From Escherichia phage LorandFenyves_Bas91: a stretch of DNA of 64,000 nucleotides. Made by a program: the position numbers and the translations under genes. The notes beneath the pieces were generated by a model. The model worked only from the letters and a program-made list of their open reading frames with translations. It was not told the DNA's origin and searched no databases. Position 1 is the first letter of the stretch. The number at the start of each line of letters is the position of its first letter. This document shows positions 4,753 to 62,223 of the stretch, in pieces. The DNA lies in the sequence record PQ850614.1; one strand, 5' to 3'.

Positions 4753-4757
4753 CAACA

Positions 4758-4785
4758 AGGGGCTTCGTGCCCCTTTTATTGTTTT
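4758..4785 (+). terminator. hairpin plus T-run inside the late operon
   Basis: GGGGC-ttcgt-GCCCC followed by TTTT ATT GTTTT, between the 1005-aa gene stop and the next RBS. Confidence 0.5.
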
Positions 4786-4795
4786 GGAGGAACTT

Positions 4796-5764: not shown

Positions 5765-5765
5765 T

Positions 5766-6797: not shown

Positions 6798-6809
6798 CAA
6801 GGAGATATT

Positions 6810-7592: not shown

Positions 7593-7611
7593 TAATCTTT
7601 AAGGAGGACTT

Positions 7612-8664: not shown

Positions 8665-8676
8665 AGGAGATTTGAT

Positions 8677-9645
8677 ATGGGACTTTTCGGAGGAGGGGGT
8701 AGTAAAACTACTTCCCAAATGATTCGCCCTGAATACATTCAACAGTATATTGACCAGCTTAACCAGCAGATCGGTAATACTAGTTCAGGAGATTATGTTT
8801 ATCGAGATAATGTAGGGTTTAATAATAATCAGACAGAGGCACTTAATAACCTAGCACAATCTGGCGCTTTGGGCACGCTCTCACAGCAATATATGGATGC
8901 AGCAGGTCAAGGCTTGGGCTATCTAGATAATGCCTATAAAGGCTATCAGAGCCTCTCTGGACAAGGTGGGATTACTGGAGAACAGATTGGTGCTCTCGCT
9001 GGTCAACTGTATGATGATGACGCTGTGCAAGCAGCCATTACAGCTAATAATGAACAGGTTCAACAAAACTTGGCACGTAATGCTCTTCCTCAGTTAGCTC
9101 AACAGTTTGCTGGTCAACAAGGTTCAGGTGCTCGTATGGCTAAGTCTTTTGCCCAAGGCGATGCTCTGAATCAGATGCAGGGCCAAGCAACAGATATCAC
9201 CAATAGTGCCTATAACTCGGCTATTAGCCAAGCTGAAAGCATCCTCTCTGGTAATAGACAGAATCAGGCAGCTGCTCTCTCTGGTCTTTCTAATATTGGT
9301 TCTAACCTTTCTAACCTAGGTCAGCAGGGTGCTAATTTGTCTCAACAGCAAATAATGAATCAATGGAATGCAGGGTTGCAGCAACAACAGCAACAACAGA
9401 ATGAATATGATAATGCCTACCAGAATGCTCAGAACGCAGCTAATTGGGGATGGCAAGATATCAATAACCAACTCGGTGCAGCAGGTGTACTTAACGGTGC
9501 TCTCGGACAAACTACAACTACTAAAACATCTGGTGGCAAAGGTGGTTTCCTTGGTGGAGCTATGAGTGGTGCAGCAGCTGGCTCTTCCTTTGGACCTTGG
9601 GGTGCATTAGCTGGGGGTGTAATCGGTGGGTTGGCTAGTACTTAA
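8677..9645 (+). CDS. Q/N/G-rich internal virion protein (paralog B)
   Basis: 322 aa with AAGGAG RBS. N-terminus MGLFGGGGSKTT...GFNNNQTEALNNLA parallels 7612..8664. Contains a QQQQQQQ run and a Gly-rich hydrophobic C-terminus. Confidence 0.7.
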   Translation: MGLFGGGGSKTTSQMIRPEYIQQYIDQLNQQIGNTSSGDYVYRDNVGFNNNQTEALNNLAQSGALGTLSQQYMDAAGQGLGYLDNAYKGYQSLSGQGGITGEQIGALAGQLYDDDAVQAAITANNEQVQQNLARNALPQLAQQFAGQQGSGARMAKSFAQGDALNQMQGQATDITNSAYNSAISQAESILSGNRQNQAAALSGLSNIGSNLSNLGQQGANLSQQQIMNQWNAGLQQQQQQQNEYDNAYQNAQNAANWGWQDINNQLGAAGVLNGALGQTTTTKTSGGKGGFLGGAMSGAAAGSSFGPWGALAGGVIGGLAST

Positions 9646-9658
9646 TTAGGAGATAAAT

Positions 9659-11308
9659 ATGCAACAGACAACTTACGCTCAGGTCAGAAGTCGTGACCCG
9701 AGAAATACTTTCTATGGTGTTAATCCGGGAGCGGCTTCGGCCTCTCCTTATATGGCTAGACCAACTCAGACAGCAGATATTTCTATGTATCAACGTCCTG
9801 CTGTACCTGCTGGGATTTCCTCTCTTGTAGGTCAAACTTCAGTAGATTATCAGAATATGTTGAATCCCGTTCAGAGTAATGGTCTTCCTTCTGATATCCC
9901 AAATGATGTACAACCTCAAGCACAACAGGCTGTAACTCTTCCTGAGTTTGAGAATCAAGAAACCATGCAAGCTGCTGGACTTTCTCCTTCTTCTATTCCT
10001 CCAGAATCAGAACCTCTTCCGGTAACACCTCCTACTAAACCGTTAGAAGCTGGTCCTATGGAGTTTACTCCTTCTCAGGTGGAACAGGCACAAGGTGTGA
10101 TTAATACTCTTGCTCAAGGACAAGACGCTGGTGATGGAATGACTGCTGCTACTCGTGCTAAAGATCAGGAACGCGTCAACAACGATATCTTGCAAGTTGC
10201 GAAAGCTAAAGACCCTTCGGAAGCTTGGAACAAACTACAGAAAGAACCATTCTATCAGAACTCTAGTTTCTACACAGGTTTGATGGGTGTAGGTCTTTCC
10301 ATTATGTCAGGTAAGTCTCCTATTGAAGCTTTCCAGATTGGTCAGGGAATGGCTAATCAAGATGAGACTAAGAAGCAACTGGAAGCTAACCGTGATGCTC
10401 TGATTGAACAAGGCTTCTCTCAAGACTCGATCGCAGCTGCTATTGCTAACGGAGACCCATCTCTACTGAAGATGAGAGCTGTAGACCCTGCTCAGAAAGA
10501 AGCGCTGTATGCTGCTCGTGAAGAACGACAAAATGCTGAATGGGATAGACGTCAACAGATTCAAGAGCAAACTATGCGTGAGCGTGCTGATGAAACTCGT
10601 CGTGCCGCTGAAGAAAGAGCTAACATGAACTTTGAACGTCAGAAAGAGTTGATTGGTTATCGTGATAAGGTTAAGGCTGAACGTGCTGAACAAGCTGCTC
10701 AGAGTTTTAACTTTAACCCGAAAGAAGTTCGTCTTGCTCAGAATACAGCTGAAGGTACGGTTGCTAAGCAGTGGGCAGAGAAAGGTGGCCTGTTTAACCA
10801 GTCTAACAAAGACTTGGATTTGGCTGACAAGGCTGTTAAGGATAAAGACTATCAGACAGCTCGTTCTGCTTACATGCAGGCTATCATGAACTCCGCAAGG
10901 GCTGAAATCGGTGCTACTCGTTCTCTTACCGAAGAAGACTTGGGGCACTTTGCAGAAGACCCATCAATCTTCGTTCGTGTTGGCAACAAGTTTGCACTGA
11001 AATCTGGATGGCGTCCTACTGATTCTGCTCTTGCTTATGCTCGTAAGCAAGCTAACGTTGGTCACACCTCTGCAATGAAAGGTGTTGCTGATGCTAAGAG
11101 AGCTACGATTGAAGCTTACATCGGTTCTGGTATGGATAAGAAGAGAGCTACTGCATTGGTTAACCGTGCAATCCCTTCTGGTGGTTTCTATGACCCTCTA
11201 GGTGTTTTCTCTGAACAAGCAGAAGAAGCAGTTGGTGGTGCAGCAACCAATCCTAAGCTTAATGGTGCTTTATCAGCTGTCGAAGACACTAGCTGGTTTA
11301 CTCAATAA
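9659..11308 (+). CDS. internal virion / ejection protein (function inferred from position only)
   Basis: 549-aa ORF with AGGAGA RBS. Pro/Gln-rich N-terminus and a charged helical middle. Lies in the run of presumed ejection proteins. Confidence 0.65.
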   Translation: MQQTTYAQVRSRDPRNTFYGVNPGAASASPYMARPTQTADISMYQRPAVPAGISSLVGQTSVDYQNMLNPVQSNGLPSDIPNDVQPQAQQAVTLPEFENQETMQAAGLSPSSIPPESEPLPVTPPTKPLEAGPMEFTPSQVEQAQGVINTLAQGQDAGDGMTAATRAKDQERVNNDILQVAKAKDPSEAWNKLQKEPFYQNSSFYTGLMGVGLSIMSGKSPIEAFQIGQGMANQDETKKQLEANRDALIEQGFSQDSIAAAIANGDPSLLKMRAVDPAQKEALYAAREERQNAEWDRRQQIQEQTMRERADETRRAAEERANMNFERQKELIGYRDKVKAERAEQAAQSFNFNPKEVRLAQNTAEGTVAKQWAEKGGLFNQSNKDLDLADKAVKDKDYQTARSAYMQAIMNSARAEIGATRSLTEEDLGHFAEDPSIFVRVGNKFALKSGWRPTDSALAYARKQANVGHTSAMKGVADAKRATIEAYIGSGMDKKRATALVNRAIPSGGFYDPLGVFSEQAEEAVGGAATNPKLNGALSAVEDTSWFTQ

Positions 11309-24454: not shown

Positions 24455-26299
24455 TTAGTGTGTATGCATCCAGTTAAGTCCAATCTGACAATCAGATGCC
24501 AGAGGACATTCCATATTCAGATACTCGCCAGCTTTCTTAACACAAAGCTCGGTGTGCTCTTTGAGTTTCTGTACATCATTACGGTTTACTGAGAATTGAC
24601 CTTCATCGTGCATATCAATTACCTTAGCACAACGAACCTTATCTTTCTCAATCCACTTGTTAAGGAACATCATAGCATATTTCATAACAACAGCACCAGC
24701 ACATTGCAGGAGTGTGTTAAGGGCTTTATGAACCATAACCTTACCAGTGGCATCCCGTCTCATTGTAATCTTACGACCATCAACTCCAATCAAGTATCCT
24801 TGAGCAGCTTTCTCTGTCATACGATCAATGAGGATTGCAATACATGGATTCTCTGCCAAGAAACGTGCTCGCATCACTGAACCTTCGTCAGCCCCACCAC
24901 CTACAATTGAACCAAGCTTAGCGTCGCCAGCACCATAGTTAAATGCATAGATAAACGTCTTAGCGTTGTCACGAGTAGGAAGACCAGCAAGTTTCTGGTT
25001 GTGGGAGTGGATATCACCTTCAAGGAGAATATCACGATACATAATAGCAGAAGCTAAACCACGTTCTGCCAGAGCTTTCTTAGCTGGGTTGTTCTCTTCG
25101 ATTGCCTCAGCAAGCATATCCCTACACTCTTTAATGAGGTAGTGAGCGAGCATACGAAGTTCAAGTCCAGAACCATCATACCCTAAGAATACTTCTTTAC
25201 CAGCGGGTATGTAATATTTGTAAGCGCCTACAGGTTTGTCTTTCTTCCCCGGCTTACCTTTCTCGTAAATTACGTTAGTACCTTTTCGTATATAACAACC
25301 ATCAGGAACAACGTTAGTAATAACGAAAGGACGAGAGTGATCACTGTCTGAGTTATAGTCAGACTCAAACAAACTGCGACACTCGTGACCAAACAGACCA
25401 CGGGAGGGAATATTAACCACGATACGATGTTTGAATCGAAAAGTCGGCGTAGCGCAGCTGTTAGCTTCTGCCGAAAGTTTACCATCTTCGCGTTCCTTTG
25501 CTATGAGTCCACTGATAAGACCTAGCCTGTGAGCCGCTACAACGCGTCTCTTAAGCAAACTTCCGACACTCCCTAGCTCACCCCCTAACCCTTCTTCAAG
25601 AGTCTCCTCGAGGTTTGTAGGAGCTGTAGGCCACTTGTTTGATGTGGCTAGTGCTTTCTTAATCTCATCAAACGTTACAGGATTACGGCGATTAGGGTTC
25701 AACCCCAAACCAAATACGTAAGCCTTCATGTAATTCTTAGTCTTAAACCTGAAATGCTTTTCTAAGAACTTCTTAATATCAGCGTCAACCATCTCGGCTG
25801 TCTGCTTCTGCTTAGCATTGCCTCGCATCCAAGCAGTATACCATGCTTGGTATGTTCCATACTTTCTCATATCTTTCTTAATTTCGAAAGTATTCCAAGG
25901 CTTCTTAGATACGTTAAACTCTGGAGGAAGAAAGCCCTCATCCATAAGAGCTTCTTTAACTCGTGCATCTTTCGATGGGTCAAAGTCTACGTATTCGACA
26001 CAGGTGAAAGCTCCACCAATATCTTCTCTCTTCAGCCCAACCCTATCACAATAGGCTTGAGGCCACTTCTGTAAAGCTCCAGACTTCTTAAATGGCTTCA
26101 TGTAAGTAGAGCCATCTAATCTCATCTTAGGTAAGAGAGGAATCAACTCTCTGTCAATATTAACAATAATCTCTTTAAGGAGGTGAACATACCACCGAGC
26201 ATTTCTTCGGTTGAAACTCACTCCGTGCTTTGCTTGCTTAGAGATTATATCAGCGACAGTCATCTCTGTCAAAAATGGAAGAGCGTCCGGGTTGCTCAC
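24455..26299 (-). CDS. family A DNA polymerase, polymerase (thumb/palm/fingers) portion only
   Basis: Motif A LGYDGSGLELRMLAHY, motif B RDNAKTFIYAFNYGAG, motif C VIDMHDEGQF. No exonuclease motifs in this ORF. Confidence 0.9.
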   Translation of the reverse strand: MSNPDALPFLTEMTVADIISKQAKHGVSFNRRNARWYVHLLKEIIVNIDRELIPLLPKMRLDGSTYMKPFKKSGALQKWPQAYCDRVGLKREDIGGAFTCVEYVDFDPSKDARVKEALMDEGFLPPEFNVSKKPWNTFEIKKDMRKYGTYQAWYTAWMRGNAKQKQTAEMVDADIKKFLEKHFRFKTKNYMKAYVFGLGLNPNRRNPVTFDEIKKALATSNKWPTAPTNLEETLEEGLGGELGSVGSLLKRRVVAAHRLGLISGLIAKEREDGKLSAEANSCATPTFRFKHRIVVNIPSRGLFGHECRSLFESDYNSDSDHSRPFVITNVVPDGCYIRKGTNVIYEKGKPGKKDKPVGAYKYYIPAGKEVFLGYDGSGLELRMLAHYLIKECRDMLAEAIEENNPAKKALAERGLASAIMYRDILLEGDIHSHNQKLAGLPTRDNAKTFIYAFNYGAGDAKLGSIVGGGADEGSVMRARFLAENPCIAILIDRMTEKAAQGYLIGVDGRKITMRRDATGKVMVHKALNTLLQCAGAVVMKYAMMFLNKWIEKDKVRCAKVIDMHDEGQFSVNRNDVQKLKEHTELCVKKAGEYLNMECPLASDCQIGLNWMHTH

Positions 26300-51013: not shown

Positions 51014-51089
51014 TGGTCGGGACGGAAGGATTCGAACCCTCGTAAGGCGAGTTAGAAGCTCGCTGCCTGTTCCACTAGACTACGCCCCG
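51014..51089 (-). tRNA. tRNA-Arg(UCU): tRNA-Arg (anticodon UCU), CCA encoded
   Basis: Hand-folded 76-nt cloverleaf. Acceptor CGGGGCG/CGTCCCG. Anticodon arm GCGAG-CTTCTAA-CTCGC. T-arm GAGGG-TTCGAAT-CCTTC. Discriminator A + CCA. Confidence 0.85.
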
Positions 51090-53298: not shown

Positions 53299-53517
53299 TT
53301 ACTTTTGGGATAAACACAGATCAGGGCGTGGCATAACAGTGGTTGATAGACCGAAAACTTCAACAGAACCACTATTCAGATTAGCGGCCTTGCACAAACC
53401 ATCAGGAGTTTTATCTTCTAACATTAGCCAGAAACGTCTATCGTAGGAGAAAACATCACCACTTTTAACATCTTCTGCATTTGCATATTTAGGATAATCA
53501 ACTACTTTAATTTCCAT
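53299..53517 (-). CDS. small beta-rich protein, 8-member paralog family
   Basis: VKSGDVFSYDRRFWLMLE...LCKAANLNSGSV. Confidence 0.65.
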   Translation of the reverse strand: MEIKVVDYPKYANAEDVKSGDVFSYDRRFWLMLEDKTPDGLCKAANLNSGSVEVFGLSTTVMPRPDLCLSQK

Positions 53518-53527
53518 CTACTTACCC

Positions 53528-53746
53528 TTATTGGTTGATGGTTAGGTGAACTAGCTTATTCACATGAGCGAAGTTAGGTAGGATTTGCATTTCATTATTG
53601 AAGATATTAAAACAACGAACCCCGCCCTCTACAGCATAAGCAGATTTCTGAAACAGACTACCTCCCCACACAAATACATCATGTGTTTCAAGAGATCGTA
53701 ACTGAACAGCCTCGTCAACAACCTTCTTTTCAATGTTCATAATCAC
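53528..53746 (-). CDS. small beta-rich protein, 8-member paralog family
   Basis: LETHDVFVWGGSLFQKS...VRCFNIFNNEM. Confidence 0.6.
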   Translation of the reverse strand: MIMNIEKKVVDEAVQLRSLETHDVFVWGGSLFQKSAYAVEGGVRCFNIFNNEMQILPNFAHVNKLVHLTINQ

Positions 53747-53997
53747 TTCCGATTAGTAATAACAACGTCATGAAGAAGAACAACCTTGCTTTTCGAGCTG
53801 AGCTTAAGGACTTGCTTGTTTGTTAGACTAAGGACGACACAACCACCATCAGAAGGCTTAGTCTCCTCGACCTGCGATCTAAACAGGTGAACAACCATGT
53901 AGAAATCTGCTCGTGTTTCCCTGATTTGGAATACATCTCCAAGTTTGAGATCACCAACACACAAAGACGGTTCATTTACTTCAAGATTAATCTTCAT
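53743..53997 (-). CDS. small beta-rich protein, 8-member paralog family
   Basis: LKLGDVFQIRETRADFYMVV...GGCVVLSLTNKQV. Confidence 0.65.
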   Translation of the reverse strand: MKINLEVNEPSLCVGDLKLGDVFQIRETRADFYMVVHLFRSQVEETKPSDGGCVVLSLTNKQVLKLSSKSKVVLLHDVVITNRK

Positions 53998-54250
53998 CTT
54001 TAACCTCTACCTCTACGTTGGTTATGTGGAGATCGTTACGAACTTGGCAGACCTCATTTCGGTTAATAGGGACAAGCTTTCCATAGACCACATCAACGCA
54101 TTTAACATGATAATCAGATGTTGAGTCTGTTCTGATATAGAGTTTTTCTCGGAAAGAAAACAAAACTCCCGGCCTCATGTTATTTAAACGAAGGTGATGG
54201 CCTGTTTCTTGGATATTAACTTTCACTGTTGATCTCCTGCTGTTTAGCAA
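53987..54250 (-). CDS. small beta-rich protein, 8-member paralog family
   Basis: MRPGVLFSFREKLYIRTD...VKCVDVVYGKL. Confidence 0.65.
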   Translation of the reverse strand: MLNSRRSTVKVNIQETGHHLRLNNMRPGVLFSFREKLYIRTDSTSDYHVKCVDVVYGKLVPINRNEVCQVRNDLHITNVEVEVKDED

Positions 54251-54512
54251 TAGCTACTCGCAAGTCTTCATTAGCACGAGCAAGGCGTTTAACTTCATGA
54301 TCAAGGCTGATAAGGCGCTTGTTTCTGTCTTCAACTTGCATAATAAGATCGTTGAGTGTTACTTTAACTTTCTCATTATACATCTCATCTACTCGGACAA
54401 GAGATTTATACATTCTCTCCCAGCTTGCTGCTTTGTTTCTTAGGATAATAAATCCTAGAACGCTGATAGTTAAACAGATTACAAAAAGGAATTTATATAC
54501 TTCTAAAGTCAT
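54216..54512 (-). CDS. N-terminally anchored coiled-coil membrane protein (98 aa)
   Basis: TMD FLFVICLTISVLGFIIL followed by a heptad-rich charged region. Confidence 0.6.
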   Translation of the reverse strand: MTLEVYKFLFVICLTISVLGFIILRNKAASWERMYKSLVRVDEMYNEKVKVTLNDLIMQVEDRNKRLISLDHEVKRLARANEDLRVAIAKQQEINSES

Positions 54513-54711
54513 ATTATTTACCCTTTATCAGAGATTAAAAGTAATATTATTTAAGTAAGTTATATTTAGTAAATTTATTTTCTAAGAAATTTTCAAAGGG
54601 TCTATATACAGAGCATTACCCATAGTCCCAGAATACTGCCATCTTTTTCAATAAATTTACTAAGTGGTTGGTTTATAAAGGAATTTAGTTTGTTAAATCT
54701 GGCACTAGAGA

Positions 54712-55101
54712 TTATTCCCTAGAGCTATTATCGAACACTAAATCACCACAATACATAGGATTGGCATACCATTTTGGCACCCCTTCGCTCTTACTCTGAA
54801 AGTAAGTCCCACTATAAAGCGGAACATAATTCTTCGTAAGGGCACGTTTAGCTAGCCGCTCGCTTTCTCCAATGGCTTGCTTAGTCATCGGATTTTTATC
54901 ACGAATCAGCTTTACATAACGTTTATAAGGTTTCTCCTGTTTTAATAGTACCGAAATCCACTCAAACTGGTTCTTTTGTCTTATCACCTGTTCAGCGGTC
55001 AGTTTTCGTTGGGCCATTCTATTTATCACGGTATCCGCAACTAAAGCCTTACATGCGGTTGGCTGATTCCCTGCCTCATAATAAATAGTCAATGTCAACA
55101 T
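54712..55101 (-). CDS. cell-wall hydrolase, SleB/Hydrolase_2-like
   Basis: IYYEAGNQP...ALVADTVINRM...VIRQKNQFEW pattern. The start is uncertain because the only strong SD (AGGAGG) lies 30 nt upstream of the ATG. Confidence 0.65.
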   Translation of the reverse strand: MLTLTIYYEAGNQPTACKALVADTVINRMAQRKLTAEQVIRQKNQFEWISVLLKQEKPYKRYVKLIRDKNPMTKQAIGESERLAKRALTKNYVPLYSGTYFQSKSEGVPKWYANPMYCGDLVFDNSSRE

Positions 55102-55149
55102 TAGCTGTGCCGTTGTTATCAGAACTTGATACCTCCTGTTTTACGGGCA

Positions 55150-55176
55150 TAAAAAAGCCCCAGCCGTAGCCGGGGC
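55150..55176 (-). terminator. intrinsic terminator
   Basis: Minus strand GCCCCGGC-tacg-GCTGGGGC followed by TTTTTT. Confidence 0.65.
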
Positions 55177-55237
55177 AAACCTGAAAGCAACACATGACCG
55201 TTGCTATAAATACACTCGCAAATGCACTTATAGCAAC

Positions 55238-55262
55238 GCAAAAAGCCGCTCAAAGGCGGCTA
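55238..55262 (-). terminator. intrinsic terminator
   Basis: Minus strand AGCCGC-ctttga-GCGGCT followed by TTTTT. Confidence 0.65.
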
Positions 55263-55306
55263 TGCGGAAGCTTCAAATGGGGAGAGGGCACGACGCTACA
55301 GAAAGA

Positions 55307-55324
55307 GCGTCATAGTACTAAAAG
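55307..55324. repeat. 18-mer GCGTCATAGTACTAAAAG, copy 2 of 2
   Basis: Identical to 48053-48070. It lies 18 nt 3' of the stop of 55342..55785. Confidence 0.6.
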
Positions 55325-55341
55325 AGGGGGCTATATTCCTA

Positions 55342-55785
55342 CTACTTAACCCTTGCCTCTTTGATGGGGTCAATGTATTTTTCAACGCCCCACTTGTGTT
55401 TACTATCTGCGTAGAAAACATCAGGTGCACACTGGCTTGTCTTAGGGAAAGCCTGCGGGTCTTTCGTGCTACCCTTAAACTTCTGTTTACCACGGGTGCG
55501 ACCATTACAGAAGATTTCTAACTTCTTCTCTTCTTCTGTTTTAGCGCCCCCGCTCTGTAACAAAGAACGTTTATGATCAGCTAATAACAACGCATCAGCA
55601 CGATGGACACGATGGCCTACACGTTTTGCCACACTGGAAGGAACATGGGATTCAGCCTCAGCCTTTGCAGCACGACGTTTTAAACTACGCTTACTAACGT
55701 GATTAGCTGCCTTCGGTTTCTCTTTCTCTAGTTCAGAGATAGCAAAACAACGCCCGCCCTTCATGCTGATTTTAGATTTAGCCAC
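55342..55785 (-). CDS. basic hypothetical protein (147 aa, GTG start)
   Basis: AGGAA RBS before the GTG. Lys/Arg-rich. Confidence 0.6.
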   Translation of the reverse strand: MAKSKISMKGGRCFAISELEKEKPKAANHVSKRSLKRRAAKAEAESHVPSSVAKRVGHRVHRADALLLADHKRSLLQSGGAKTEEEKKLEIFCNGRTRGKQKFKGSTKDPQAFPKTSQCAPDVFYADSKHKWGVEKYIDPIKEARVK

Positions 55786-55808
55786 AATCTTATTCCTTTT
55801 AGTGATAA

Positions 55809-55838
55809 ATTATATCGGGCAAGCCCATCAAGGTGACA
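55809..55838 (-). promoter_or_regulatory. sigma70-type promoter candidate (perfect -10)
   Basis: Minus strand TGTCAC-N18-TATAAT, about 25 nt before the GTG of 55342..55785. The -35 is weak. Confidence 0.35.
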
Positions 55839-55854
55839 GGCTTGAACAAATAAC

Positions 55855-56064
55855 TTAATCGAGTAAACTAAATGACTTCCAACTGCGTAGCAGGATTGTA
55901 CCATCATCCATAGCCACGCATAACTTTAACAGCTTCTTGTTAGCACTACTCACCGTTGTAATTCGTCCGGTTGTACATTTACCTTTATTGCTATAAAGAT
56001 ACACTACACGACGACCTAACAGACGAGAGGGAGCTTTCTTAAACTCTGAAATATTAGTGATCAT
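55855..56064 (-). CDS. hypothetical protein (69 aa)
   Basis: Track ORF. Confidence 0.55.
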   Translation of the reverse strand: MITNISEFKKAPSRLLGRRVVYLYSNKGKCTTGRITTVSSANKKLLKLCVAMDDGTILLRSWKSFSLLD

Positions 56065-56285
56065 AATGCTTGATACCTTTGAATATGTTCAATACGGGTG
56101 GATTGAGCAAATGACGCTTTAACAGCCATTTTCCTAACTTCTTCTTTACGCTGGTTAGTGTGTACAGTATCCCAATGATTGTTATCACGTTGGCGCTGTA
56201 ATATCTTACTACATTTGCGATGGTTTCCCGTGCTGCGATGTTTCTCGCAAATAGGACACTTGCCAAAATTATTACTGAATATCAT
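56061..56285 (-). CDS. small zinc-binding basic protein (74 aa)
   Basis: CPICEKHRSTGNHRKC. Chosen over the overlapping 56054..56266 frame. Confidence 0.5.
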   Translation of the reverse strand: MIFSNNFGKCPICEKHRSTGNHRKCSKILQRQRDNNHWDTVHTNQRKEEVRKMAVKASFAQSTRIEHIQRYQAL

Positions 56286-56509
56286 TTTCTCAATCCCAAC
56301 TTTCTTAAGATACGGCCTAACGTTGTTTCTTGCGTGATAATATAGCTGATCGCTTCACGTTCCAATGTTTCAATCTTCATTGGTGACGGATACCATTCAC
56401 CGGTAATAACACATTTACATTCAACGCCATACTTTTTAGATAGGCGGTAATGTTGACCGTTGACAAGATTCCGATAAATCGTGGTATGCGTAATTAACAT
56501 GATCATCAC
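56282..56509 (-). CDS. hypothetical protein (75 aa)
   Basis: Track ORF with a 4-nt overlap downstream. Confidence 0.55.
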   Translation of the reverse strand: MMIMLITHTTIYRNLVNGQHYRLSKKYGVECKCVITGEWYPSPMKIETLEREAISYIITQETTLGRILRKLGLRK

Positions 56510-56552
56510 CTTTGATTAGATTCTTTGATTAATGCACTGAATCAATGCACTG

Positions 56553-56590
56553 ATAAAAGAAAAGGCGCTACCCGTTAAGATAGCGCCTTA
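56553..56590 (-). terminator. intrinsic terminator
   Basis: Minus strand AAGGCGCTA-tcttaacgg-TAGCGCCTT followed by TTCTTTT. Confidence 0.65.
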
Positions 56591-56611
56591 TGTTTATTCA
56601 AATTGTCTTAC

Positions 56612-57511
56612 TTATGCCGCCTGACGTGCCGCCATAATTTCAGCCGCTTTACGCAATACTTCTTCCTCTTCTGCTTTCGCCGCTTGTTCGGTACGGGTAG
56701 CAACCGTTGAAGAGATACGACCGCGCAGACTTTCTAACTTCTCCTGCATAGCTGCAACAGTCTTTTCCATTTCATCAGCATATGAATCGAGTGATTCTAA
56801 TTCCTTGCTTGATGCGTTCATCAGGTAGTTATCAGAGATCGCTACCGTTGAGGCCGTGACTTTCTTGATGAGTGAATCAAAGGACTTTTTAACCTTGCCT
56901 ACTTCTTCACTTAAGGCAATGGTGTTATCACTAGTTGCGCCGTTGCGCTCATCAGCCAGTAATTTGGCTTCAATACGGATTGCATTCAAGCGTTCAACCA
57001 AAGCGTAAATATCTTGGTTAAAATCTTCCTTGTTTTTCGCCGGAATTTGCAGGTGTGCCGCCACGTTGTCATTACAACCCTTGTAAAAGTTAGGATTATC
57101 GACTTCAATTTCACGGCCTAAAGCAAAGTTTTCGAAAGCGTTTGACCAGCGAGCGCGGTTTTGTTCCATTTTGGTTTTAATTTGCGCTTCTTTCGCGTCT
57201 TCTTTAGCTTTCGCCTCACCTTCCAGATTAATCCACTTTTTACGACCATTTGCCGCATCGGTGTTAAACTTGATAGGAGTTAAGAAAGTAATTGCGGTAG
57301 CGATAACATCCATATCACGGAAACGTTCGGTTAACAGGAAGTCAACCGCCGCCTGCAATACATCTAACTTCTTACCATTACTGCGGAAGTGCTGTAAGTG
57401 CCCTAACAGGAAGTTAGAAACATCTTGTTTGATCGCCGCGTTATTGCTACGAATGTTGTTAGCCAGTGCATTAAAACCGGATTCGTTAACCAGAGTAAAG
57501 ATTTTAGCCAT
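56612..57511 (-). CDS. early protein, helical/coiled-coil (299 aa), function unknown
   Basis: Start taken as ATG 57511 (AAAGGTG RBS). First gene downstream of the promoter-rich ORF-free tract. Confidence 0.65.
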   Translation of the reverse strand: MAKIFTLVNESGFNALANNIRSNNAAIKQDVSNFLLGHLQHFRSNGKKLDVLQAAVDFLLTERFRDMDVIATAITFLTPIKFNTDAANGRKKWINLEGEAKAKEDAKEAQIKTKMEQNRARWSNAFENFALGREIEVDNPNFYKGCNDNVAAHLQIPAKNKEDFNQDIYALVERLNAIRIEAKLLADERNGATSDNTIALSEEVGKVKKSFDSLIKKVTASTVAISDNYLMNASSKELESLDSYADEMEKTVAAMQEKLESLRGRISSTVATRTEQAAKAEEEEVLRKAAEIMAARQAA

Positions 57512-58336
57512 AATATTCACCTTTCAATTGTAAGGGCGCTATTGCCCCGCTCTCTATGAGCTTGTTTAAGTCACTATTAACTTATCTCTAACCACTCACT
57601 TTTTAAGTAGTTACAGGTAAGCGAGGCGGTCTTATCAGGAGTTAACCTTGCCGCCTCCTTATCCGTGATGTTTCATCTGGTATCTTTAATTAGTCGCTAT
57701 AAACGAAGCCGACCTGATAGCGATGATCAATCATCACAATAAGGCAGTGCGTCCGACTCTAATTAGTTACGTTATTGTAACCGTCGGCAATATCGTTTAC
57801 TTTGCTTTCGCTCTCGCCTATCCTTTTGTATCAACTCTCAATCGCTAGTCATCGCCCACTACGGGATACTATTGCGAAAGAGTCATTGACCGTCTAATGT
57901 TCCGACGTTTTATATCTTTCGGCAAGTTTACTACATAAACCGACTATGTACTTTCATCATAAGATGAATCTCAAGCCGTTCACATCGTAAACGTTCACAC
58001 TAAACCTTATTGTTAAATAGCAATTTGCCACTTTTTAACCACTCCCCGCCGCTCTCAATTGAGCGTTAATTCGTCGGGATTGCCTACCCTGATTAACTTC
58101 TTTCACCGTAGCACCGTTTTAGCGATGACCGCCGCTACCCTTAACCGTGGGCGATTAGCTTAAGTCTTTGCGTGTACTCGATGAATCCGTTTTATCAGTG
58201 GTGACGTTTCCAGTAAGGGAATGTAAGATTGTTTTCTCTGATAGTTTAGAGAATCTTACACCGTTTTATCTGGTATGTTATCTGATGGTTATTATCATCT
58301 AACATATTCAACCGATATAGGAGAATGTTTAAATTA

Positions 58337-58347
58337 TTAAAGAGCGG
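58337..58347. repeat. TTAAAGAGCGG 11-mer, copy 1
   Basis: Same 11-mer at 58568-58578 and 58987-58997. The variant TTAAAGAGCTGG is at 58879-58890. Confidence 0.6.
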
Positions 58348-58433
58348 TAAATCTGTCAGTGTGCTTTCTCACACTACGCAACTGTTAGCCGTTGTTACGC
58401 TTTCCTTAAGCGGTGATTTGCTTAAGTGTGCTC

Positions 58434-58462
58434 ATTATGAATCATGTTGTTTTCGCTGTCAA
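58434..58462 (-). promoter_or_regulatory. strong sigma70-type promoter (early)
   Basis: Minus strand TTGACA-N17-CATAAT followed by GAGCA. Near-identical core to 58920-58948. Confidence 0.65.
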
Positions 58463-58567
58463 CCACTTTTTTAATCTTTTTCGTCGTTCCCGCTATTGGG
58501 AGGATATATCAATCAGCTTTATTTGATTGAAGACTAAGCGGTGATGCTTATCTTATGATTCATATTG

Positions 58568-58578
58568 TTAAAGAGCGG
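58568..58578. repeat. TTAAAGAGCGG 11-mer, copy 2
   Basis: Exact repeat. Confidence 0.6.
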
Positions 58579-58591
58579 TTACTACATTTAC

Positions 58592-58619
58592 AGCTTAACA
58601 CATCGTGTTAGCTTGTCAA
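58592..58619 (-). promoter_or_regulatory. sigma70-type promoter candidate
   Basis: Minus strand TTGACA-N16-TAAGCT, with TG two nt upstream of the -10. Confidence 0.4.
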
Positions 58620-58878
58620 CTCTTTTTATCATCTTCTTTTAATTCCTTTCCCTTGTCTCGCGTGAATCTATGCGAAAGGGCAAGATGATAAGTCTGATTT
58701 GTCTTTTAGGAATCTAGTGCGCTTTCAAGCATTGACCATTTGAAAGTATCGAACAAATGAGGCTTATTTTGTTGCTCATCGTCCGCCTGTTCACGTATGA
58801 ATCAGGAATCAATTCTAGTGGTCAACTAAGCGCCTTATAGTAATGACGTTCCCGCCACCTGTAAGACAAATCATATTT

Positions 58879-58890
58879 TTAAAGAGCTGG
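58879..58890. repeat. TTAAAGAGCTGG variant of the 11-mer, copy 3
   Basis: One-nt insertion variant. Confidence 0.5.
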
Positions 58891-58919
58891 ATGTTTCACG
58901 TCATCGCTGACTTATGCTC

Positions 58920-58948
58920 ATTATGTATCAGGCTTTTTCTAGTGTCAA
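58920..58948 (-). promoter_or_regulatory. strong sigma70-type promoter (early)
   Basis: Minus strand TTGACA-N17-CATAAT followed by GAGCA. Confidence 0.65.
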
Positions 58949-58986
58949 TACTCTTTTTCAAGTATTTTCACTTTCTAGCCTGATTT

Positions 58987-58997
58987 TTAAAGAGCGG
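58987..58997. repeat. TTAAAGAGCGG 11-mer, copy 4
   Basis: Exact repeat, about 40 nt upstream (minus sense) of the 58943 -35 box. Confidence 0.6.
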
Positions 58998-59045
58998 GGC
59001 AATTTCTTGCCTTGTATGTTTTACATCGTACCCGATGAAATGAAG

Positions 59046-59054
59046 TATACATTA
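59046..59054 (-). promoter_or_regulatory. TAATGTATA box at the head of the ORF-free tract
   Basis: Exact 9-mer on the minus strand, between the 59230 terminator and the sigma70-type promoters. Confidence 0.4.
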
Positions 59055-59229
59055 ATCAGATGAGGTTGCAATAGGGTAAAGCAAATTATTTTAAACTTTT
59101 TTTGAAAGGTGGGAAGTATAAGAGAATGCGCGCGGGATAACATACGCAAAACAGGCTGTAAATCACTTTCTAACGTCCTGTAAGCCATTCTAACGAGCTA
59201 AAAGGGAGTAAGGTATACAATCACCTTAG

Positions 59230-59258
59230 AAAAGAAAAAAGCCTCATAGTGAGGCTTA
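59230..59258 (-). terminator. intrinsic terminator
   Basis: Minus strand AAGCCTCA-cta-TGAGGCTT followed by TTTTTCTTTT. Confidence 0.65.
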
Positions 59259-59333
59259 TAGGAAGGATTTAAAGCATCAGATAAATTATGACCATAGGCA
59301 TGACTACGGCACAATAAAGAAGAAAGATTAAGC

Positions 59334-59699
59334 CTATGGATTTACACATTGACCGTTACCGGATGCCATTTCATTCATGGACTCATCAAAGAGCGTCAAC
59401 GATGAGCGCATCAAGTGATCCACCGTAATTTGTTTACCGGTAGTTTCATTTACCAGTTGAATAGTTTTAGCGTATGATTGTACATGTTCAAAATCATCAA
59501 CATGCAAAATAATAACTTTAGGTGACTGTTTACCAGTTTCATAGTTTTCTATCAAATAGGTGCACTGTAAACCGTCAACCATATCAGGGGAGAATGTTGC
59601 AGCCTTTACACTACCCATAGCCGATAGCAGGACACCTAACAGGAGAACAACCAGAAAGAAGCCTACAACCGTTTTAACGACGAATTTAATAAACCACAT
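59334..59699 (-). CDS. membrane-anchored/exported early protein (121 aa)
   Basis: N-terminal hydrophobic anchor VVGFFLVVLLLGVLLSAMG. Confidence 0.6.
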   Translation of the reverse strand: MWFIKFVVKTVVGFFLVVLLLGVLLSAMGSVKAATFSPDMVDGLQCTYLIENYETGKQSPKVIILHVDDFEHVQSYAKTIQLVNETTGKQITVDHLMRSSLTLFDESMNEMASGNGQCVNP

Positions 59700-59794
59700 A
59701 GCAATAAACCTTTAGTTAGAAAACGTAAGAATACATCATATCAGTAATGAACAGCAGGAAGGTCGCACCAAACAAGCAACGCCAAAAATAATCA

Positions 59795-60073
59795 CTATTC
59801 ATCGTTGCTATTCTCGCCAAAAAATGCTACGCTAATCTGTTCCACTTCTTCCAGCGACAGGAGAATCCCGCGTTGGGCTAAATACTTCCCAACAGTTAGA
59901 TAATCTTGCACTAAGCAGACAATAGGAAAGCGGATAGTTTGTATCTCACCTTTGGAAAGAAAAGACAAATAACCAACGTCGGTTGATTCATCAAAGGATA
60001 GTGTAACGCCACCGTAATTATGCGTAGCAATTAACGCAATAGTTTCATTTCCCATAACGTTTCCAATCCTCAT
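59795..60073 (-). CDS. hypothetical early protein (start uncertain; alternative ATG 60055)
   Basis: Track ORF that overlaps the upstream gene end. Confidence 0.5.
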   Translation of the reverse strand: MRIGNVMGNETIALIATHNYGGVTLSFDESTDVGYLSFLSKGEIQTIRFPIVCLVQDYLTVGKYLAQRGILLSLEEVEQISVAFFGENSNDE

Positions 60074-60266
60074 AATGATTAACTAGTGCCTGATAATCGT
60101 CAGATGATAACTCACCGCCTAAATAGGCAACGGTTATGCGTGCTTTGTATTCTGACAAACTGCATAGCGCGGGAGCGGATAACCTGCTTTCGCCATAACA
60201 TCCTAGCACTTCAACGATACAACCGTTTAAAGATACTGATTTATTAATCACGATATGGTTAGCCAT
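60045..60266 (-). CDS. hypothetical early protein (73 aa)
   Basis: Start moved to ATG 60266 (AAGGA RBS), which overlaps the upstream stop. Confidence 0.55.
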   Translation of the reverse strand: MANHIVINKSVSLNGCIVEVLGCYGESRLSAPALCSLSEYKARITVAYLGGELSSDDYQALVNHYEDWKRYGK

Positions 60267-60522
60267 TAATATCATCCTTAATTAGCCCATGATTGAGCAG
60301 GTTAGCCAGTGATAAGCCACCGTCAAAATAAACAGAACGAAAATCAGCGCGGGTAATTTCAAGGCCAGCAAACTTCAACCAGTTTTTAGCTGATTGAAAA
60401 TCCATTTTGCAAAAAGTAATAATAGGAACAGTAAGCTGACCATCGAGCGTATTAAACATAATAGCGGTATCGCCAATAAAACAAGAAAAGCCACTAGATA
60501 ATCTAATTTCTTTAATAGCCAT
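60259..60522 (-). CDS. hypothetical early protein (87 aa)
   Basis: GGGAG RBS. Confidence 0.55.
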   Translation of the reverse strand: MAIKEIRLSSGFSCFIGDTAIMFNTLDGQLTVPIITFCKMDFQSAKNWLKFAGLEITRADFRSVYFDGGLSLANLLNHGLIKDDING

Positions 60523-60558
60523 TATTTATACTCCCAAAAGATTGGCAAATTAATTTAT

Positions 60559-61431
60559 TCACTTACTAGCCTTAATACAGTTGGCTAAATTAACGTGAAC
60601 GGTATAAACAGCGTTATCAGCGTTATTGTAAACAGTCGTGGCGATCATCGACTCATTGATCGGGCCATAGCTAACAAGGTTAGTAACGGCTTTAACGTCT
60701 TCATAACGTTGTACAGTGCCGAAAGTCACCATATCCGCATCGTTATCAGTACGCTTAAGCACTAAATCACTGTTAGGCTGATTATCTAACGTTTTAGATT
60801 GAAAGAGAACGCCATCATTAGTAACGTTGCTAAATTTCATCTTTAGCACGATATTATTGCCGTCACTATCCGCACCGTTGCAAATCATCCAACCCTTATT
60901 GATGGAACTAGAGAAGACACTAGCGGCATCAGTTGCAGGAGCAGGACTAGCGATAGCCTTATCAGAAAGAGATGTGACCAGTGCACTAACACCAATAGCT
61001 GCAACCAGTGCATAACTTGCCAGATTAACAGACTTCATAATCTTACTTGCAACAGTAGGCTTGATTGGCTGTTTCTTGTTTTTCTTATTCCATGCTTCAA
61101 CCATGACAGACAAGCGGGATAATTCAGCTTTCACATCGCGGCATGACTCAGGCCAATCCTTCTGATTCCAGCTATCTAAATTTGCTTGAATGTAGCAATT
61201 AATAGCGTCCTGCATATCGGTAAAACCGTTCTCTTTGAACGTGCTTTCATCTTCACACTGTAAAGCGTTCGCAGTAGAGTTAATGATCAAGCAAGCCAGC
61301 ATTACAGAGTTTTTGAATCCTTTACGTGCACTTTCGTTTTCCATCCACGCATCAGGACTACCAACGGTTAAGCCTAAAGAGGAAAGGCTTTCGTTTGCTT
61401 TGTTCAAGTGGTTAATTGCTACTTTAGACAT
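60559..61431 (-). CDS. bitopic membrane early protein (290 aa)
   Basis: GAAGGAA RBS. Helical N-terminal domain, central TMD LASYALVAAIGVSALVTSL, and a beta-type C-terminal domain. First gene after the 61476-61503 promoter. Confidence 0.65.
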   Translation of the reverse strand: MSKVAINHLNKANESLSSLGLTVGSPDAWMENESARKGFKNSVMLACLIINSTANALQCEDESTFKENGFTDMQDAINCYIQANLDSWNQKDWPESCRDVKAELSRLSVMVEAWNKKNKKQPIKPTVASKIMKSVNLASYALVAAIGVSALVTSLSDKAIASPAPATDAASVFSSSINKGWMICNGADSDGNNIVLKMKFSNVTNDGVLFQSKTLDNQPNSDLVLKRTDNDADMVTFGTVQRYEDVKAVTNLVSYGPINESMIATTVYNNADNAVYTVHVNLANCIKASK

Positions 61432-61475
61432 TTGATATTCCTTCTGGTTGATGAAAACTACAAACTACACTCGCA

Positions 61476-61503
61476 ACTATATATTAAAGGAAAAGGCTGT
61501 CAA
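61476..61503 (-). promoter_or_regulatory. strong sigma70-type promoter (leftmost early promoter in transcription order)
   Basis: Minus strand TTGACA-N16-TATAGT, 45 nt before ATG 61431. Confidence 0.65.
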
Positions 61504-61646
61504 CCATTTATTTTCTAACTTTCTTGCATCCTACTGAAAACTAAAGGAATTTAATTTACTAAACTTTCTATACTCAGGGTATCAGCTTACTAGCTATTGT
61601 TACTTTATAACACCAATTCTACGGGCAGCAGACCAACAGACCAGGA

Positions 61647-61683
61647 CACGGGGAGCATACAACCGCAGGACAGACCACGGGGA
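61647..61683. repeat. two CACGGGGA repeats (iteron-like)
   Basis: ACGGGGA at 61648-61654 and 61677-61683, with the same orientation as the 62037-62070 copies. Confidence 0.6.
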
Positions 61684-62035
61684 AATATAGCAAGATAGTG
61701 CGGTAATAATATACCACTTAAATAATTGTATAACTCAAACATCAAAGACGTTCGTACTTCGTACTCACAAAGGCACGCTGAAAAAGAAAGTAATAAAAGA
61801 AACAATTAAAAGAAATACAATCATCCACTTAATTAATACATATATCATTATTGCACTCATAATCATTACTATTGAAACTATTATCAACGTAACTATGGGG
61901 AGCTGAACGGTAACAATACGGTATTATTAGACCTGTTATTATCACGCCTTAACAGACCGTTATCAGAGTATAGCCTTTCTCTCACTCTTTAAAGGGGAAC
62001 TAAATAAACGGGTAGCTAATGTATTGGGTAGTATA

Positions 62036-62070
62036 CACGGGGAAATAATTACGGGGAGTAGGCACGGGGA
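62036..62070. repeat. three (C/T)ACGGGGA repeats spaced 13-14 nt (iteron-like)
   Basis: ACGGGGA at 62037, 62051 and 62064. An AT-rich ~300-bp tract separates them from the 61648/61677 pair. Confidence 0.6.
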
Positions 62071-62223
62071 ACGCTGGAACGTTGAAAGGGAAGGTAAAGG
62101 CATTGCCAATAACCCTTTTTTAAATGAGGACTCCCCCTTTTTAGGAAACGCGCGGCGAGCGGCTAGCCCCATTAGGTCAAATCAGAATTTTAAACTCTTA
62201 TATATAAGGTTGAAAGAGAACTT

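Follow-up and report, generated by a model that had tools for sequence, protein, structure and literature searches.

Early region of the phage genome

Positions 54513–61503 of a 64,000-nucleotide stretch of DNA from Escherichia phage LorandFenyves_Bas91 (PQ850614.1; the whole 64-kb stretch is called the window) were analyzed together with related phage genomes. By sequence comparison, this block is the right-end early region, transcribed leftward, of a Kuravirus (phiEco32-like podophage). From right to left it holds a host-type promoter, a first operon ended by terminator T1, a 1.8-kb gap free of open reading frames (ORFs) between a 121-amino-acid ORF and the homologue of phiEco32 gp124, and a run of small genes interrupted by terminators T2–T4 (Table 1). 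The gap, which also lies between phiEco32 genes 124 and 125, is the main subject here: three tandem promoters (Pa, Pb and Pc), four copies of BoxA and an untranslated leader of conserved RNA structure are arranged in it much as in a ribosomal RNA (rrn) operon.

Megablast of positions 54000–62000 matched 99 phage records, the nearest being Escherichia phage vB_EcoP-CHD5UKE1 (98.9% identity), SU10 (96.5%) and phiEco32 (93%), all Kuravirus (Gordonclarkvirinae). The block is homologous to phiEco32 genes 117–128 and SU10 genes 116–125. Linear GenBank genomes of close relatives terminate at ~61960–62164 in window coordinates, so the window was taken to be a circularly permuted or concatemer-derived copy running into left-end early genes. 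Measured from the physical right end, the first promoter (61503–61476) lies ~450–660 bp and Pa, Pb and Pc lie 3.0–3.5 kb inward. Between 59333 and 57521, minus-strand ORFs were limited to two, of 32 and 55 amino acids; the former is out of frame in PJNS034 (an unclassified coliphage, described below), and the latter has no Shine-Dalgarno sequence and falls where conservation is poor.

BoxA elements of the ORF-free region

The window was searched for GYTCTTTAANA, the functional gamma-proteobacterial BoxA consensus and NusB/NusE site (Baniulyte et al., PMC5725501). Four perfect matches were found on the transcribed strand at 58335–58995 (0.66 expected in the whole window), and the only other match lay antisense within the plus-strand gene block (1–16 kb). 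The 12-mer GCTCTTTAANAA occurred four times, always on the minus strand at 58334–58995, against 0.15 expected. For comparison, E. coli rrnH was read from the genome (leader BoxA TGCTCTTTAACAATTTA; 16S–23S spacer BoxA GCTCTTTAAAAATC): BoxA3 and BoxA4 correspond to the leader copy, BoxA1 to the spacer copy.

Three to five perfect BoxA copies in sense orientation were present in each of 18 Gordonclarkvirinae (the window and 17 relatives), and were kept though flanks and promoter modules differ between clades. Across these 18 phages, variation in BoxA4 (T or C) was confined to the N position of the consensus. Promoter–BoxA spacing was surveyed in 21 sequences (the 18 Gordonclarkvirinae, PJNS034, TacPo2 and T7) from inferred start sites. 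A strong promoter lay at most 160 nt upstream of 50 of the 78 BoxA copies, and the Pc–BoxA4 pair was universal among the relatives examined.

Pairing partners of BoxA were also considered. Covariation gives almost no support to the pairings predicted for BoxA4 itself (helices 4–5). The sequence AGAGAGCGG, invariant and complementary to the BoxA core, is placed 30–45 nt before the gp124 ATG, just upstream of the ribosome-binding site; since it never varies, its pairing with the BoxA core cannot be judged by covariation. The element at 57533–57561 (minus strand) and the BoxA1 region at 58988–59003 (minus strand) form an inverted repeat, 1.4 kb apart. A long-range stem of 59003–58988 with 57556–57541, 15/16 complementary in the window, was rejected as a conserved helix: in phiEco32 and SU10 the 3' element is the same, but the sequence on the upstream side of BoxA1 bears no relation to that of the window. 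A fifth BoxA-like copy, GCTATTTAACAA (58021–58010), was not counted, as it deviates from the consensus where GCTC has its C, and predicted pairing places it in a hairpin and a long-range helix.

Structure and conservation of the leader RNA

The leader was found in all 97 relatives identified. In a 13-genome alignment, its column identity to the window was 0.80–0.98 over nearly its whole length. In comparison with SU7, a phage of another genus, the leader was 88–97% identical over most of its length (75% in one 100-nt bin), and the adjacent gp124 coding sequence and later genes were 61–82% and 50–78% identical, respectively. No conserved ORF of at least 40 amino acids was found in the leader; NC-B and TH34 had none on either strand.

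The minimum free energy (MFE) of the sense leader was -281.8 kcal/mol, against -221.7 ± 9.0 kcal/mol for dinucleotide shuffles (z = -6.7), and that of the antisense leader was -241.4 kcal/mol (z = -5.3). For covariation analysis, 18 phages were aligned with MAFFT. The RNAalifold consensus contained 253 pairs, 79 of them with compensatory double changes. In an explicitly stated structure of 282 pairs, 98.1% of alignment cells could pair and 81 pairs were changed on both sides, compared with 35–45% pairing and 6–12 double-change pairs when 3' partners were moved by 1–3 columns (slid controls); column shuffles gave 36.5 ± 3.5, and 0 of 500 equaled the observed value. Because this structure was derived from the same alignment, the count was repeated on the single-sequence MFE structure of the window, which takes no comparative input, and gave 95.5% pairing and 71 double-change pairs (slid controls, 8–13). 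G-U accounted for 10.1% of cells, distributed over 78 of the 282 pairs, so the structure belongs to the transcribed strand. By these measures the leader is a large structured RNA supported by covariation, with ~40 predicted helices over 0.9 kb.

Rfam 15 covariance models (including GOLLD, ROOL, rRNA and 6S) gave no match to the leader at gathering score. The only gathering-score match in the window was tRNA-Arg, which was also all that ARAGORN returned, and the two weak matches at E ≤ 5 in 57300–59400 (a small nucleolar RNA and a Bacillus small RNA, E = 2–4) were at chance level; assignment to a known RNA family was rejected on these results. A host origin was likewise rejected: blastn of the ORF-free region against 5,426 complete E. 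coli genomes gave nothing, and a conserved 24-nt leader pattern was absent from 185,579 bacterial and archaeal genomes. The same pattern was found in eight metagenome contigs, four of them of phage-genome size (68–78 kb), and a 17-mer retrieved the same few genomes from IMG/VR, with four further contigs.

The heptamer TAAAACG occurs eight times in the window, with four copies within 363 nt of the leader (57906–58268, minus strand). By eye, at least two copies directly follow a helix strand (CCAG-AUAAAACGG and CACUG-AUAAAACGG). The cluster may be a repeated structural or protein-binding module.

A second lineage in PJNS034 and TacPo2

The unclassified ~65-kb coliphage PJNS034 and Pantoea phage TacPo2 also have an ORF-free region between divergent gene blocks. 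That of PJNS034 (~1.8 kb) carries several TTGACA-type promoters, and a PJNS034 promoter -10/discriminator, TATAATGAGCGCC, is close to that of rrnH P1, TATAATGCGCC. BoxA is present twice in PJNS034 and once in TacPo2, and both have a ~480-nt leader. Approximately 190 nt starting at BoxA2 (window 58702–58887) are 73–76% identical to PJNS034, an unrelated phage, and the same identity holds for the optional element of Table 1. The PJNS034 and TacPo2 leaders are 66% identical to each other, and their joint fold contains 20 double-change pairs against 0–3 in slid controls; with two sequences and a structure chosen from them, this count is no more than suggestive. Homology of gp124 to the first gene after the PJNS034 leader was rejected (BLASTP E = 0.44, not significant). 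On sequence grounds, PJNS034 and TacPo2 are taken to be a second lineage of the same design.

Promoters and terminators

In a first-pass annotation, made from the letters of the window alone, the block had been described as genes in short cassettes, each closed by an intrinsic terminator and restarted by sigma70-type promoters. All four terminators that it placed are present on the minus strand: each is an intergenic hairpin followed by a T-tract (-10.4 to -19.0 kcal/mol), and is an intrinsic terminator by prediction. T1 is also annotated as a terminator in SU10, and its column identity to the window is 0.82–0.90. Among the promoters, those at 61476, 58920 and 58434 (each 11/12) and that at 58592 (extended -10) were retained, but the site at 55809 is weak, with only 3/6 matches in its -35, and was not among the sites listed by the promoter scan. 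The supposed restarts at 58920, 58592 and 58434 did not survive as such: no genes lie between these promoters, which form one tandem array feeding one leader.

The block had further been contrasted with terminator-poor runs downstream. Clean canonical terminators on the transcribed strand numbered four in the 7-kb block and, by our own reading, ~4 in the 38.5 kb downstream, and 11/12 promoters numbered three in each; both are thus ~5-fold denser in the block. Promoter-like sites overall were not enriched (26 vs 34.6 expected). Terminator-like sites in 50–64 kb numbered 19, against 10.1 ± 3.5 in shuffles.

The weak site at 59044–59071, between T1 and BoxA1, may feed BoxA1. The motif it overlaps, TAATGTATA, is that of the phage-sigma (gp36) promoters as quoted in PMC4281155 and has five copies in the window (0.69 expected). 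The stretch around this copy (59046–59054) is poorly conserved (0.58 among 13 aligned phages).

Several further sites were recorded. The strongest local fold signal of the block (z = -7.5) comes from the twin-terminator region at 55101–55400 (minus strand), which is also a hot spot for insertions among relatives; another strong signal (z = -4.9) lies at 54651–54950 (minus strand), inside the hydrolase gene. Deep in the minus-strand gene run, a 12/12 sigma70 promoter with extended -10 TG is found at 26244–26272 (minus strand), and further 11/12 sites are found at 39109–39081 and 19389–19360.

Genes and their turnover among relatives

By tblastn, gp124 was found only in phiEco32-like phages of E. 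coli and Shigella (97 records). The SleB-like hydrolase was identified in Pfam at 32.8 bits (cut-off 27; E = 1.1e-7), with a weak PHROG endolysin match. As had been expected from the letters alone, Pfam gave no other domain for the block proteins than Hydrolase_2 (PF07486). PHROGs yielded lineage-specific families only, and no relatives of solved structure were found for the 299- and 290-amino-acid proteins at E ≤ 1. From these three sources no host-takeover or exclusion function could be assigned to any block product.

PHROGs, and through them several GenBank records, attach the labels terminase, DNA helicase and polymerase to the ORFs at 59334–59699 (121 amino acids), 54216–54512 (98) and 60259–60522 (87), all on the minus strand. 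None of the three has a Pfam match, two have an N-terminal hydrophobic segment, and the labels look like propagated errors. At 53299–54250 (minus strand), four tandem ORFs of 72–87 amino acids share a ...GDVF... motif at 14–26% mutual identity and may be paralogues; this stretch carries an insertion with extra small ORFs in SU10 and is mostly missing from LAMP.

Turnover was mapped by BLAST comparison of the window with 13 relatives. The first operon (61.4–59.3 kb) has been replaced piecemeal in most lineages, amounting to near-total turnover. In phiEco32, a 774-bp insertion (gp118 and gp119) lies exactly after the T-tract of the 55176–55157 terminator; LAMP, IMEP8 and MN05 have an additional small gene (gp117.1) after the gp120 homologue; and 54.4–53.3 kb is variable. 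No relative lacks the core at 58691–55343, where conservation is the highest of the block. Presence and absence among relatives thus involve cassette-sized indels, several adjoining terminators, and strict conservation of the whole block was not seen. The proposal of independently acquired cassettes accordingly describes the mosaic flanks and fails at the center, which has no gene cassettes and is the most conserved part.

Table 1. Features of the early block and of related regions. Positions are those of the window unless another genome is named.
Feature	Position	Strand	Remarks
Immediate-early sigma70 promoter	61476–61503	-	TTGACA-16-TATAGT, 11/12; counterpart of the promoter upstream of phiEco32 gene 128
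First early operon	59334–61431	-	five ORFs; much variation among relatives
ORF, 290 amino acids	60559–61431	-	first operon; central hydrophobic segment
ORFs of first operon	60259–60522, 60045–60275, 59795–60073	-	
ORF, 121 amino acids	59334–59699	-	last of first operon; N-terminal hydrophobic segment
Terminator T1	59230–59257 (stem 59257–59239)	-	8-bp stem then TTTTTTCTTTTC; -10.4 kcal/mol; ends first operon
Weak sigma70-like site	59044–59071	-	TTGCAA-16-TATACT; overlaps TAATGTATA (59046–59054), between T1 and BoxA1
BoxA1	58984–58995	-	GCTCTTTAAAAA; 14 nt identical to E. coli rrnH 16S–23S spacer BoxA
Tandem promoter Pa	58920–58948	-	TTGACA-17-CATAAT, 11/12; A-rich tract upstream
BoxA2	58876–58887	-	GCTCTTTAAAAA; ~+26 from inferred Pa start
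Optional ~180-nt element	58694–58875	-	missing from several Kuraviruses
Tandem promoter Pb	58592–58619	-	TTGACA-16-(TGt)TAAGCT; extended -10 TG
BoxA3	58565–58576	-	GCTCTTTAACAA; ~+9 from inferred Pb start; same as E. coli rrn leader BoxA and T7 813–824
Tandem promoter Pc	58434–58462	-	TTGACA-17-CATAAT, 11/12; in 18/18 aligned relatives
Structured untranslated leader, ~0.92 kb	57512–58428	-	from inferred Pc start (~58428) to gp124 ATG
Predicted hairpin just upstream of BoxA4	58356–58376	-	in the position of rrn boxB; 3 covarying base pairs (GUGUG/CACAC, GCGUG/CACGC, AAGUG/CACUU and others)
BoxA4	58334–58345	-	GCTCTTTAATAA; ~+82 from inferred Pc start
Leader domains	58327–58040, 58011–57738, 57737–57665	-	followed by 3' hairpins
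gp124 homologue, 299 amino acids	56612–57511 (ATG at 57511)	-	first protein gene after leader
Terminator T2	56553–56589 (stem 56589–56562)	-	12-bp stem; -18.4 kcal/mol
Three small overlapping ORFs, 75, 74 and 69 amino acids	55855–56509	-	74-amino-acid product basic, with CPIC...H...C
Possible weak internal promoter	55809–55837	-	perfect TATAAT (55814–55809); poor -35 (GTCACC, 3/6)
gp120 homologue, 147 amino acids	55342–55785	-	Lys/Arg-rich
Twin terminators T3 and T4	55147–55261 (55261–55244; 55176–55157)	-	-15.0 and -19.0 kcal/mol
SleB-like cell-wall hydrolase	54712–55101	-	Hydrolase_2, PF07486
tRNA-Arg(TCT)	51014–51089	-	anticodon UCU
PJNS034 region of the same design	3780–4820 (PJNS034)		TTGACA-type promoters, consensus BoxA, leader before first early gene
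TacPo2 region of the same design	1500–2366 (TacPo2)		TTGACA-type promoters, consensus BoxA, leader before first early gene

Base composition

That the block is richer in CG dinucleotides had been noted as an impression, without calculation. It was borne out: the observed/expected (o/e) CpG ratio was 1.10 in 54513–61503 and 0.66 elsewhere in the window (1-kb windows, 7 in the block vs 54 outside; Mann-Whitney p = 4e-7), with a peak of 1.3–1.45 at 56.5–58.5 kb, and GpC o/e was 1.35 in the block and 0.95 elsewhere. Karlin dinucleotide distances (x1000, symmetrised) were 149 between the block and the rest of the window, 80 between the block and E. coli K-12 (50 kb), and 174 between the rest of the phage and E. 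coli. Composition is therefore not uniform across the genome, and the block has a dinucleotide signature of its own. In coding sequence, the CpG contrast lies at silent sites: o/e at codon positions 2-3 was 0.36–0.41 outside the block and 0.93 inside, and at positions 3-1 it was 0.51–0.61 and 1.01. The non-coding leader had a CpG o/e of 1.19. As a separate observation, CpG o/e drops to 0.26–0.5 in 5000–11000 (plus strand), probably late structural genes, a level well under that of the remaining genome, with GpC normal or raised.

CpG o/e was 0.94–1.0 in the right ends of SU7, NC-B and 7-11, in the T7 early region and in PJNS034, so it is the CpG-depleted core genome that is unusual, and the early block resembles ordinary enterobacterial-phage DNA. 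As far as base composition can tell, this fits acquisition or exchange of the early module; differing selection regimes are also possible. AGA made up 10% of Arg codons in the early block and 19–27% elsewhere, in agreement with a reliance of later genes on the phage tRNA-Arg. As a source of the CpG contrast, the tRNA-Arg(UCU) was considered minor at most, because most of the contrast falls at codon positions 2-3 and 3-1 and the non-coding leader shows it as well.

Interpretation of the early unit

The general outline of the block was largely known beforehand, since published phiEco32 and SU10 maps place the same promoters and terminator: one promoter and one terminator flank the first operon, and three sigma70 promoters lie in the "spacer" between phiEco32 genes 124 and 125 (SU10 genes 120 and 121), as the ORF-free region is regarded in the accessible phiEco32 and SU10 papers (Mirzaei et al. 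2014, PMC4281155, citing Pavlova et al. 2012). To our knowledge, the rrn-like BoxA unit and the ~0.9-kb structured RNA supported by covariation have not been described before.

The whole region would be transcribed leftward by host sigma70 RNA polymerase, in three layers. A short, highly variable immediate-early operon would run from the promoter at 61503 to T1, which would separate it from the rest. The second layer would comprise Pa, Pb and Pc with their A-rich upstream tracts, the four BoxA copies, the structured RNA and the gp124-like gene, and the third the small-gene cassettes split by T2–T4 and exchanged among relatives. The region is probably, though by no means securely, an early unit resembling an rrn operon, in which BoxA and Nus factors would shield a large structured RNA, assist its folding and bring host polymerase on into the early genes. 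What is demonstrated are the sequence elements, how far they are conserved and, by covariation, the secondary structure of the RNA; Nus factor binding, resistance to Rho, read-through and any function of the RNA are inferred.

By analogy with rrn operons, nascent BoxA RNA would recruit NusB–NusE(S10), with NusA, NusG and SuhB, to the elongating polymerase. The Nus complex would then shield the long untranslated RNA from Rho, tether the leader and help it to fold co-transcriptionally, and give fast, processive early transcription into gp124 and the genes beyond. BoxA1 could capture transcripts that read through T1 or that start at the overlapping TAATGTATA site. T2–T4 would serve as partial attenuators that grade expression, not as insulators of independent units. 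Antitermination of the rrn type is effective on Rho-dependent terminators and weak on intrinsic ones, so T2–T4 would still attenuate. Published work offers precedents: Rho terminates untranslated RNA, and BoxA-bound NusB/NusE with NusA, NusG and SuhB counteract this at artificial reporters and CRISPR arrays (PMC7665894); in rRNA, the Nus complex makes a loop from BoxA to polymerase and aids correct folding (PMC5725501).

Several points weigh against such a unit. In most relatives no strong sigma70 promoter precedes BoxA1, no rrn-like boxC (UGUGUGGG-like) was seen by eye after any BoxA, and the right end of Salmonella phage 7-11, a distant relative, has no consensus BoxA. Given the weak action on intrinsic terminators, read-through of T2–T4 is not accounted for by BoxA alone. 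At suhB, BoxA has the opposite effect, translational repression followed by Rho termination (PMC5725501). The high identity of the leader to SU7 could come partly from recent recombination and not from selection. A prior description is also possible: no paper combining phiEco32 and boxA was found in a literature search that did not reach the primary phiEco32 papers (Savalia 2008; Pavlova 2012). The parts seen of papers on phiEco32 and antitermination (gp79 structure, a review of phage-protein applications, the regulator P7) did not deal with this region.

Alternative explanations

A string of independently acquired cassettes, bounded by promoters and terminators and encoding host-takeover or exclusion proteins, was the explanation offered in the first-pass annotation. 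It is possible but rather unlikely. It draws on terminators that are all real and promoters that mostly are, on a dinucleotide signature that is unlike the rest of the genome and nearer to E. coli and other coliphages, and on indels and replacements that fall at or near terminators (gp118–119 after T4, gp117.1, turnover of the first operon). However, no gene separates three of its four restart promoters from one another, and all three lead into the same non-coding leader; the core at 58691–55343 is present in every relative and is the best conserved of the block; BoxA elements, moreover, favor linked, processive transcription over insulated units, and Pfam, PHROGs and the search for solved structures gave no product a takeover or exclusion function. 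That the "spacer" instead codes for unannotated small proteins, as some GenBank records would have it (6–10 tiny ORFs are annotated there in CHD5UKE1 and 101114BS3), is highly improbable. Although a 41-amino-acid hydrophobic antisense ORF (57723–57848) recurs in 11 of 18 relatives, no ORF of at least 40 amino acids is common to all relatives, NC-B and TH34 lacking any; single-base indels are dispersed along the alignment, and substitutions track base pairing, not codon structure.

If the ORF-free region acted as DNA (a replication origin, or a packaging or entry signal), its 12-mers would be iteron-like protein sites. The 4–5 direct 12-mer repeats do lie in an AT-rich non-coding stretch near the genome end, promoter clusters frequently accompany phage origins, and the antisense strand too folds better than shuffles. 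Yet the repeats match the host BoxA consensus exactly, vary at its N only, are always in sense orientation, and in 50 of 78 cases have a strong promoter within 160 nt upstream, while the 78 G-U-using leader pairs would be A-C on the other strand and the sense fold is more stable by ~40 kcal/mol. A DNA-level role is very unlikely to explain the region; as an additional function it is possible, and disfavored by the strand-specific G-U pairs. The leader might also be a purely cis-acting 5' untranslated region (UTR), in which BoxA-bound Nus factors and the fold control gp124 translation, as in lambda nutL–N or suhB. The leader is contiguous with the gp124 ribosome-binding site with no terminator between, AGAGAGCGG offers an invariant complement to the BoxA core close to the ATG, and loop-mediated translational repression over a structured ~200-nt spacer has been described (PMC5725501). 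This explanation is nonetheless considered unlikely, as ~40 helices over 0.9 kb far exceed known cis regulators, the leader is better conserved than the gp124 gene, and covariation is never seen in the pairings predicted between BoxA4 and the ribosome-binding site or for the anti-BoxA element, which are lost in TH34, StefiGeyer and TH43.

Possible roles and significance

Within the rrn-like reading, the favored guess is that the leader RNA has a function of its own and is produced in large amounts in the first minutes after infection; it may also gate gp124 translation. Candidate roles are those of a trans-acting early RNA (decoy, scaffold or anti-defense), a cis regulator of gp124, or both. 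A bolder version is put forward tentatively and with more doubt than belief: the "spacer" would be a phage-borne imitation of an rRNA operon, universal in the sampled Gordonclarkvirinae coliphages, with rrn-like promoters and BoxA driving a new, ornate RNA of ~0.9 kb that acts in trans, and PJNS034-type phages would have evolved or exchanged an analogous unit. Acting in trans within minutes of the start of infection, the leader could work by titrating Nus factors, ribosomal proteins or RNases, or by blocking a host defense.

The phage phiEco32 is a model for redirection of host RNA polymerase by a phage, and its early promoters, sigma factor gp36 and polymerase inhibitor gp79 are well studied. 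The 2-kb region with the strongest early transcription has hitherto been treated as spacer. If BoxA works there, it would account for the passage of host polymerase through a long untranslated stretch and tens of kb of early genes with no dedicated phage antiterminator. For the distant relative 7-11, the corresponding question is explicitly left open in the paper on that phage, in which an antitermination strategy "remains to be defined". An RNA of 0.9 kb with 70–80 covarying pairs in ~100 coliphages that are therapeutic candidates would join the short list of very large structured RNAs of bacteria and phages that have no assigned function, and phiEco32-like phages would offer a genetically tractable system for it. 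The compositional split, with an E. coli-like early block and a remainder CpG-depleted at silent sites, bears on how these phages were assembled.

Comparison with known systems

A close parallel is the control region of the E. coli rrn operons, with its tandem P1 and P2 promoters, boxB–BoxA–boxC leader and Nus/SuhB antitermination complex. In both, strong sigma70 promoters stand in tandem, preceded by A-rich tracts; the phage BoxA sequences include the rrn leader version (GCTCTTTAACAA) and the spacer version (GCTCTTTAAAAATC); a hairpin, predicted in the phage, precedes BoxA (BoxA4 in the phage); and a long, highly structured untranslated RNA follows directly. The phage unit differs in belonging to a lytic phage, in having four BoxA copies along the promoter array, of which three closely follow a promoter, in its lack of a visible boxC, in an RNA without rRNA or Rfam match, and in carrying protein genes on the same transcript.

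In T7, an exact GCTCTTTAACAA lies at 813–824, ~64 nt downstream of the A3 start and ahead of gene 0.3, and is unannotated in NC_001604. As in the phage studied here, three tandem host-type promoters (A1, A2 and A3) near the genome end point inward and are followed by BoxA and by early genes of the host-takeover type. T7, however, has ~100 nt from BoxA to gene 0.3, against ~830 nt of structured RNA here, and one BoxA and one early terminator, whereas an extra operon and terminator precede the array here. The lambda N/nut system is similar in placing BoxA in nascent RNA after early promoters and, if the proposed reading holds, in carrying polymerase through a long early region that contains terminators; it differs in that the BoxA found here is of the full rrn type, which is N-independent (PMC5725501). 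No block product matched an N-like antiterminator in Pfam or PHROGs, which were searched without a dedicated look for an arginine-rich motif or a downstream boxB.

Upstream of CRISPR arrays, too, a consensus BoxA precedes a long transcript that is not translated, and it prevents premature Rho termination there (Stringer et al. 2020, PMC7665894). The product of those arrays is a repeat array that is cut to CRISPR RNAs; in the phage it is one large folded RNA, with mRNA after it. GOLLD and ROOL are large "ornate" non-coding RNAs of several hundred nucleotides, often phage-linked and with many covarying helices. The leader is like them in size, covarying helices and phage association, and differs in having no Rfam 15 match, in occurring in enterobacterial lytic podophages and in being a 5' leader with BoxA.

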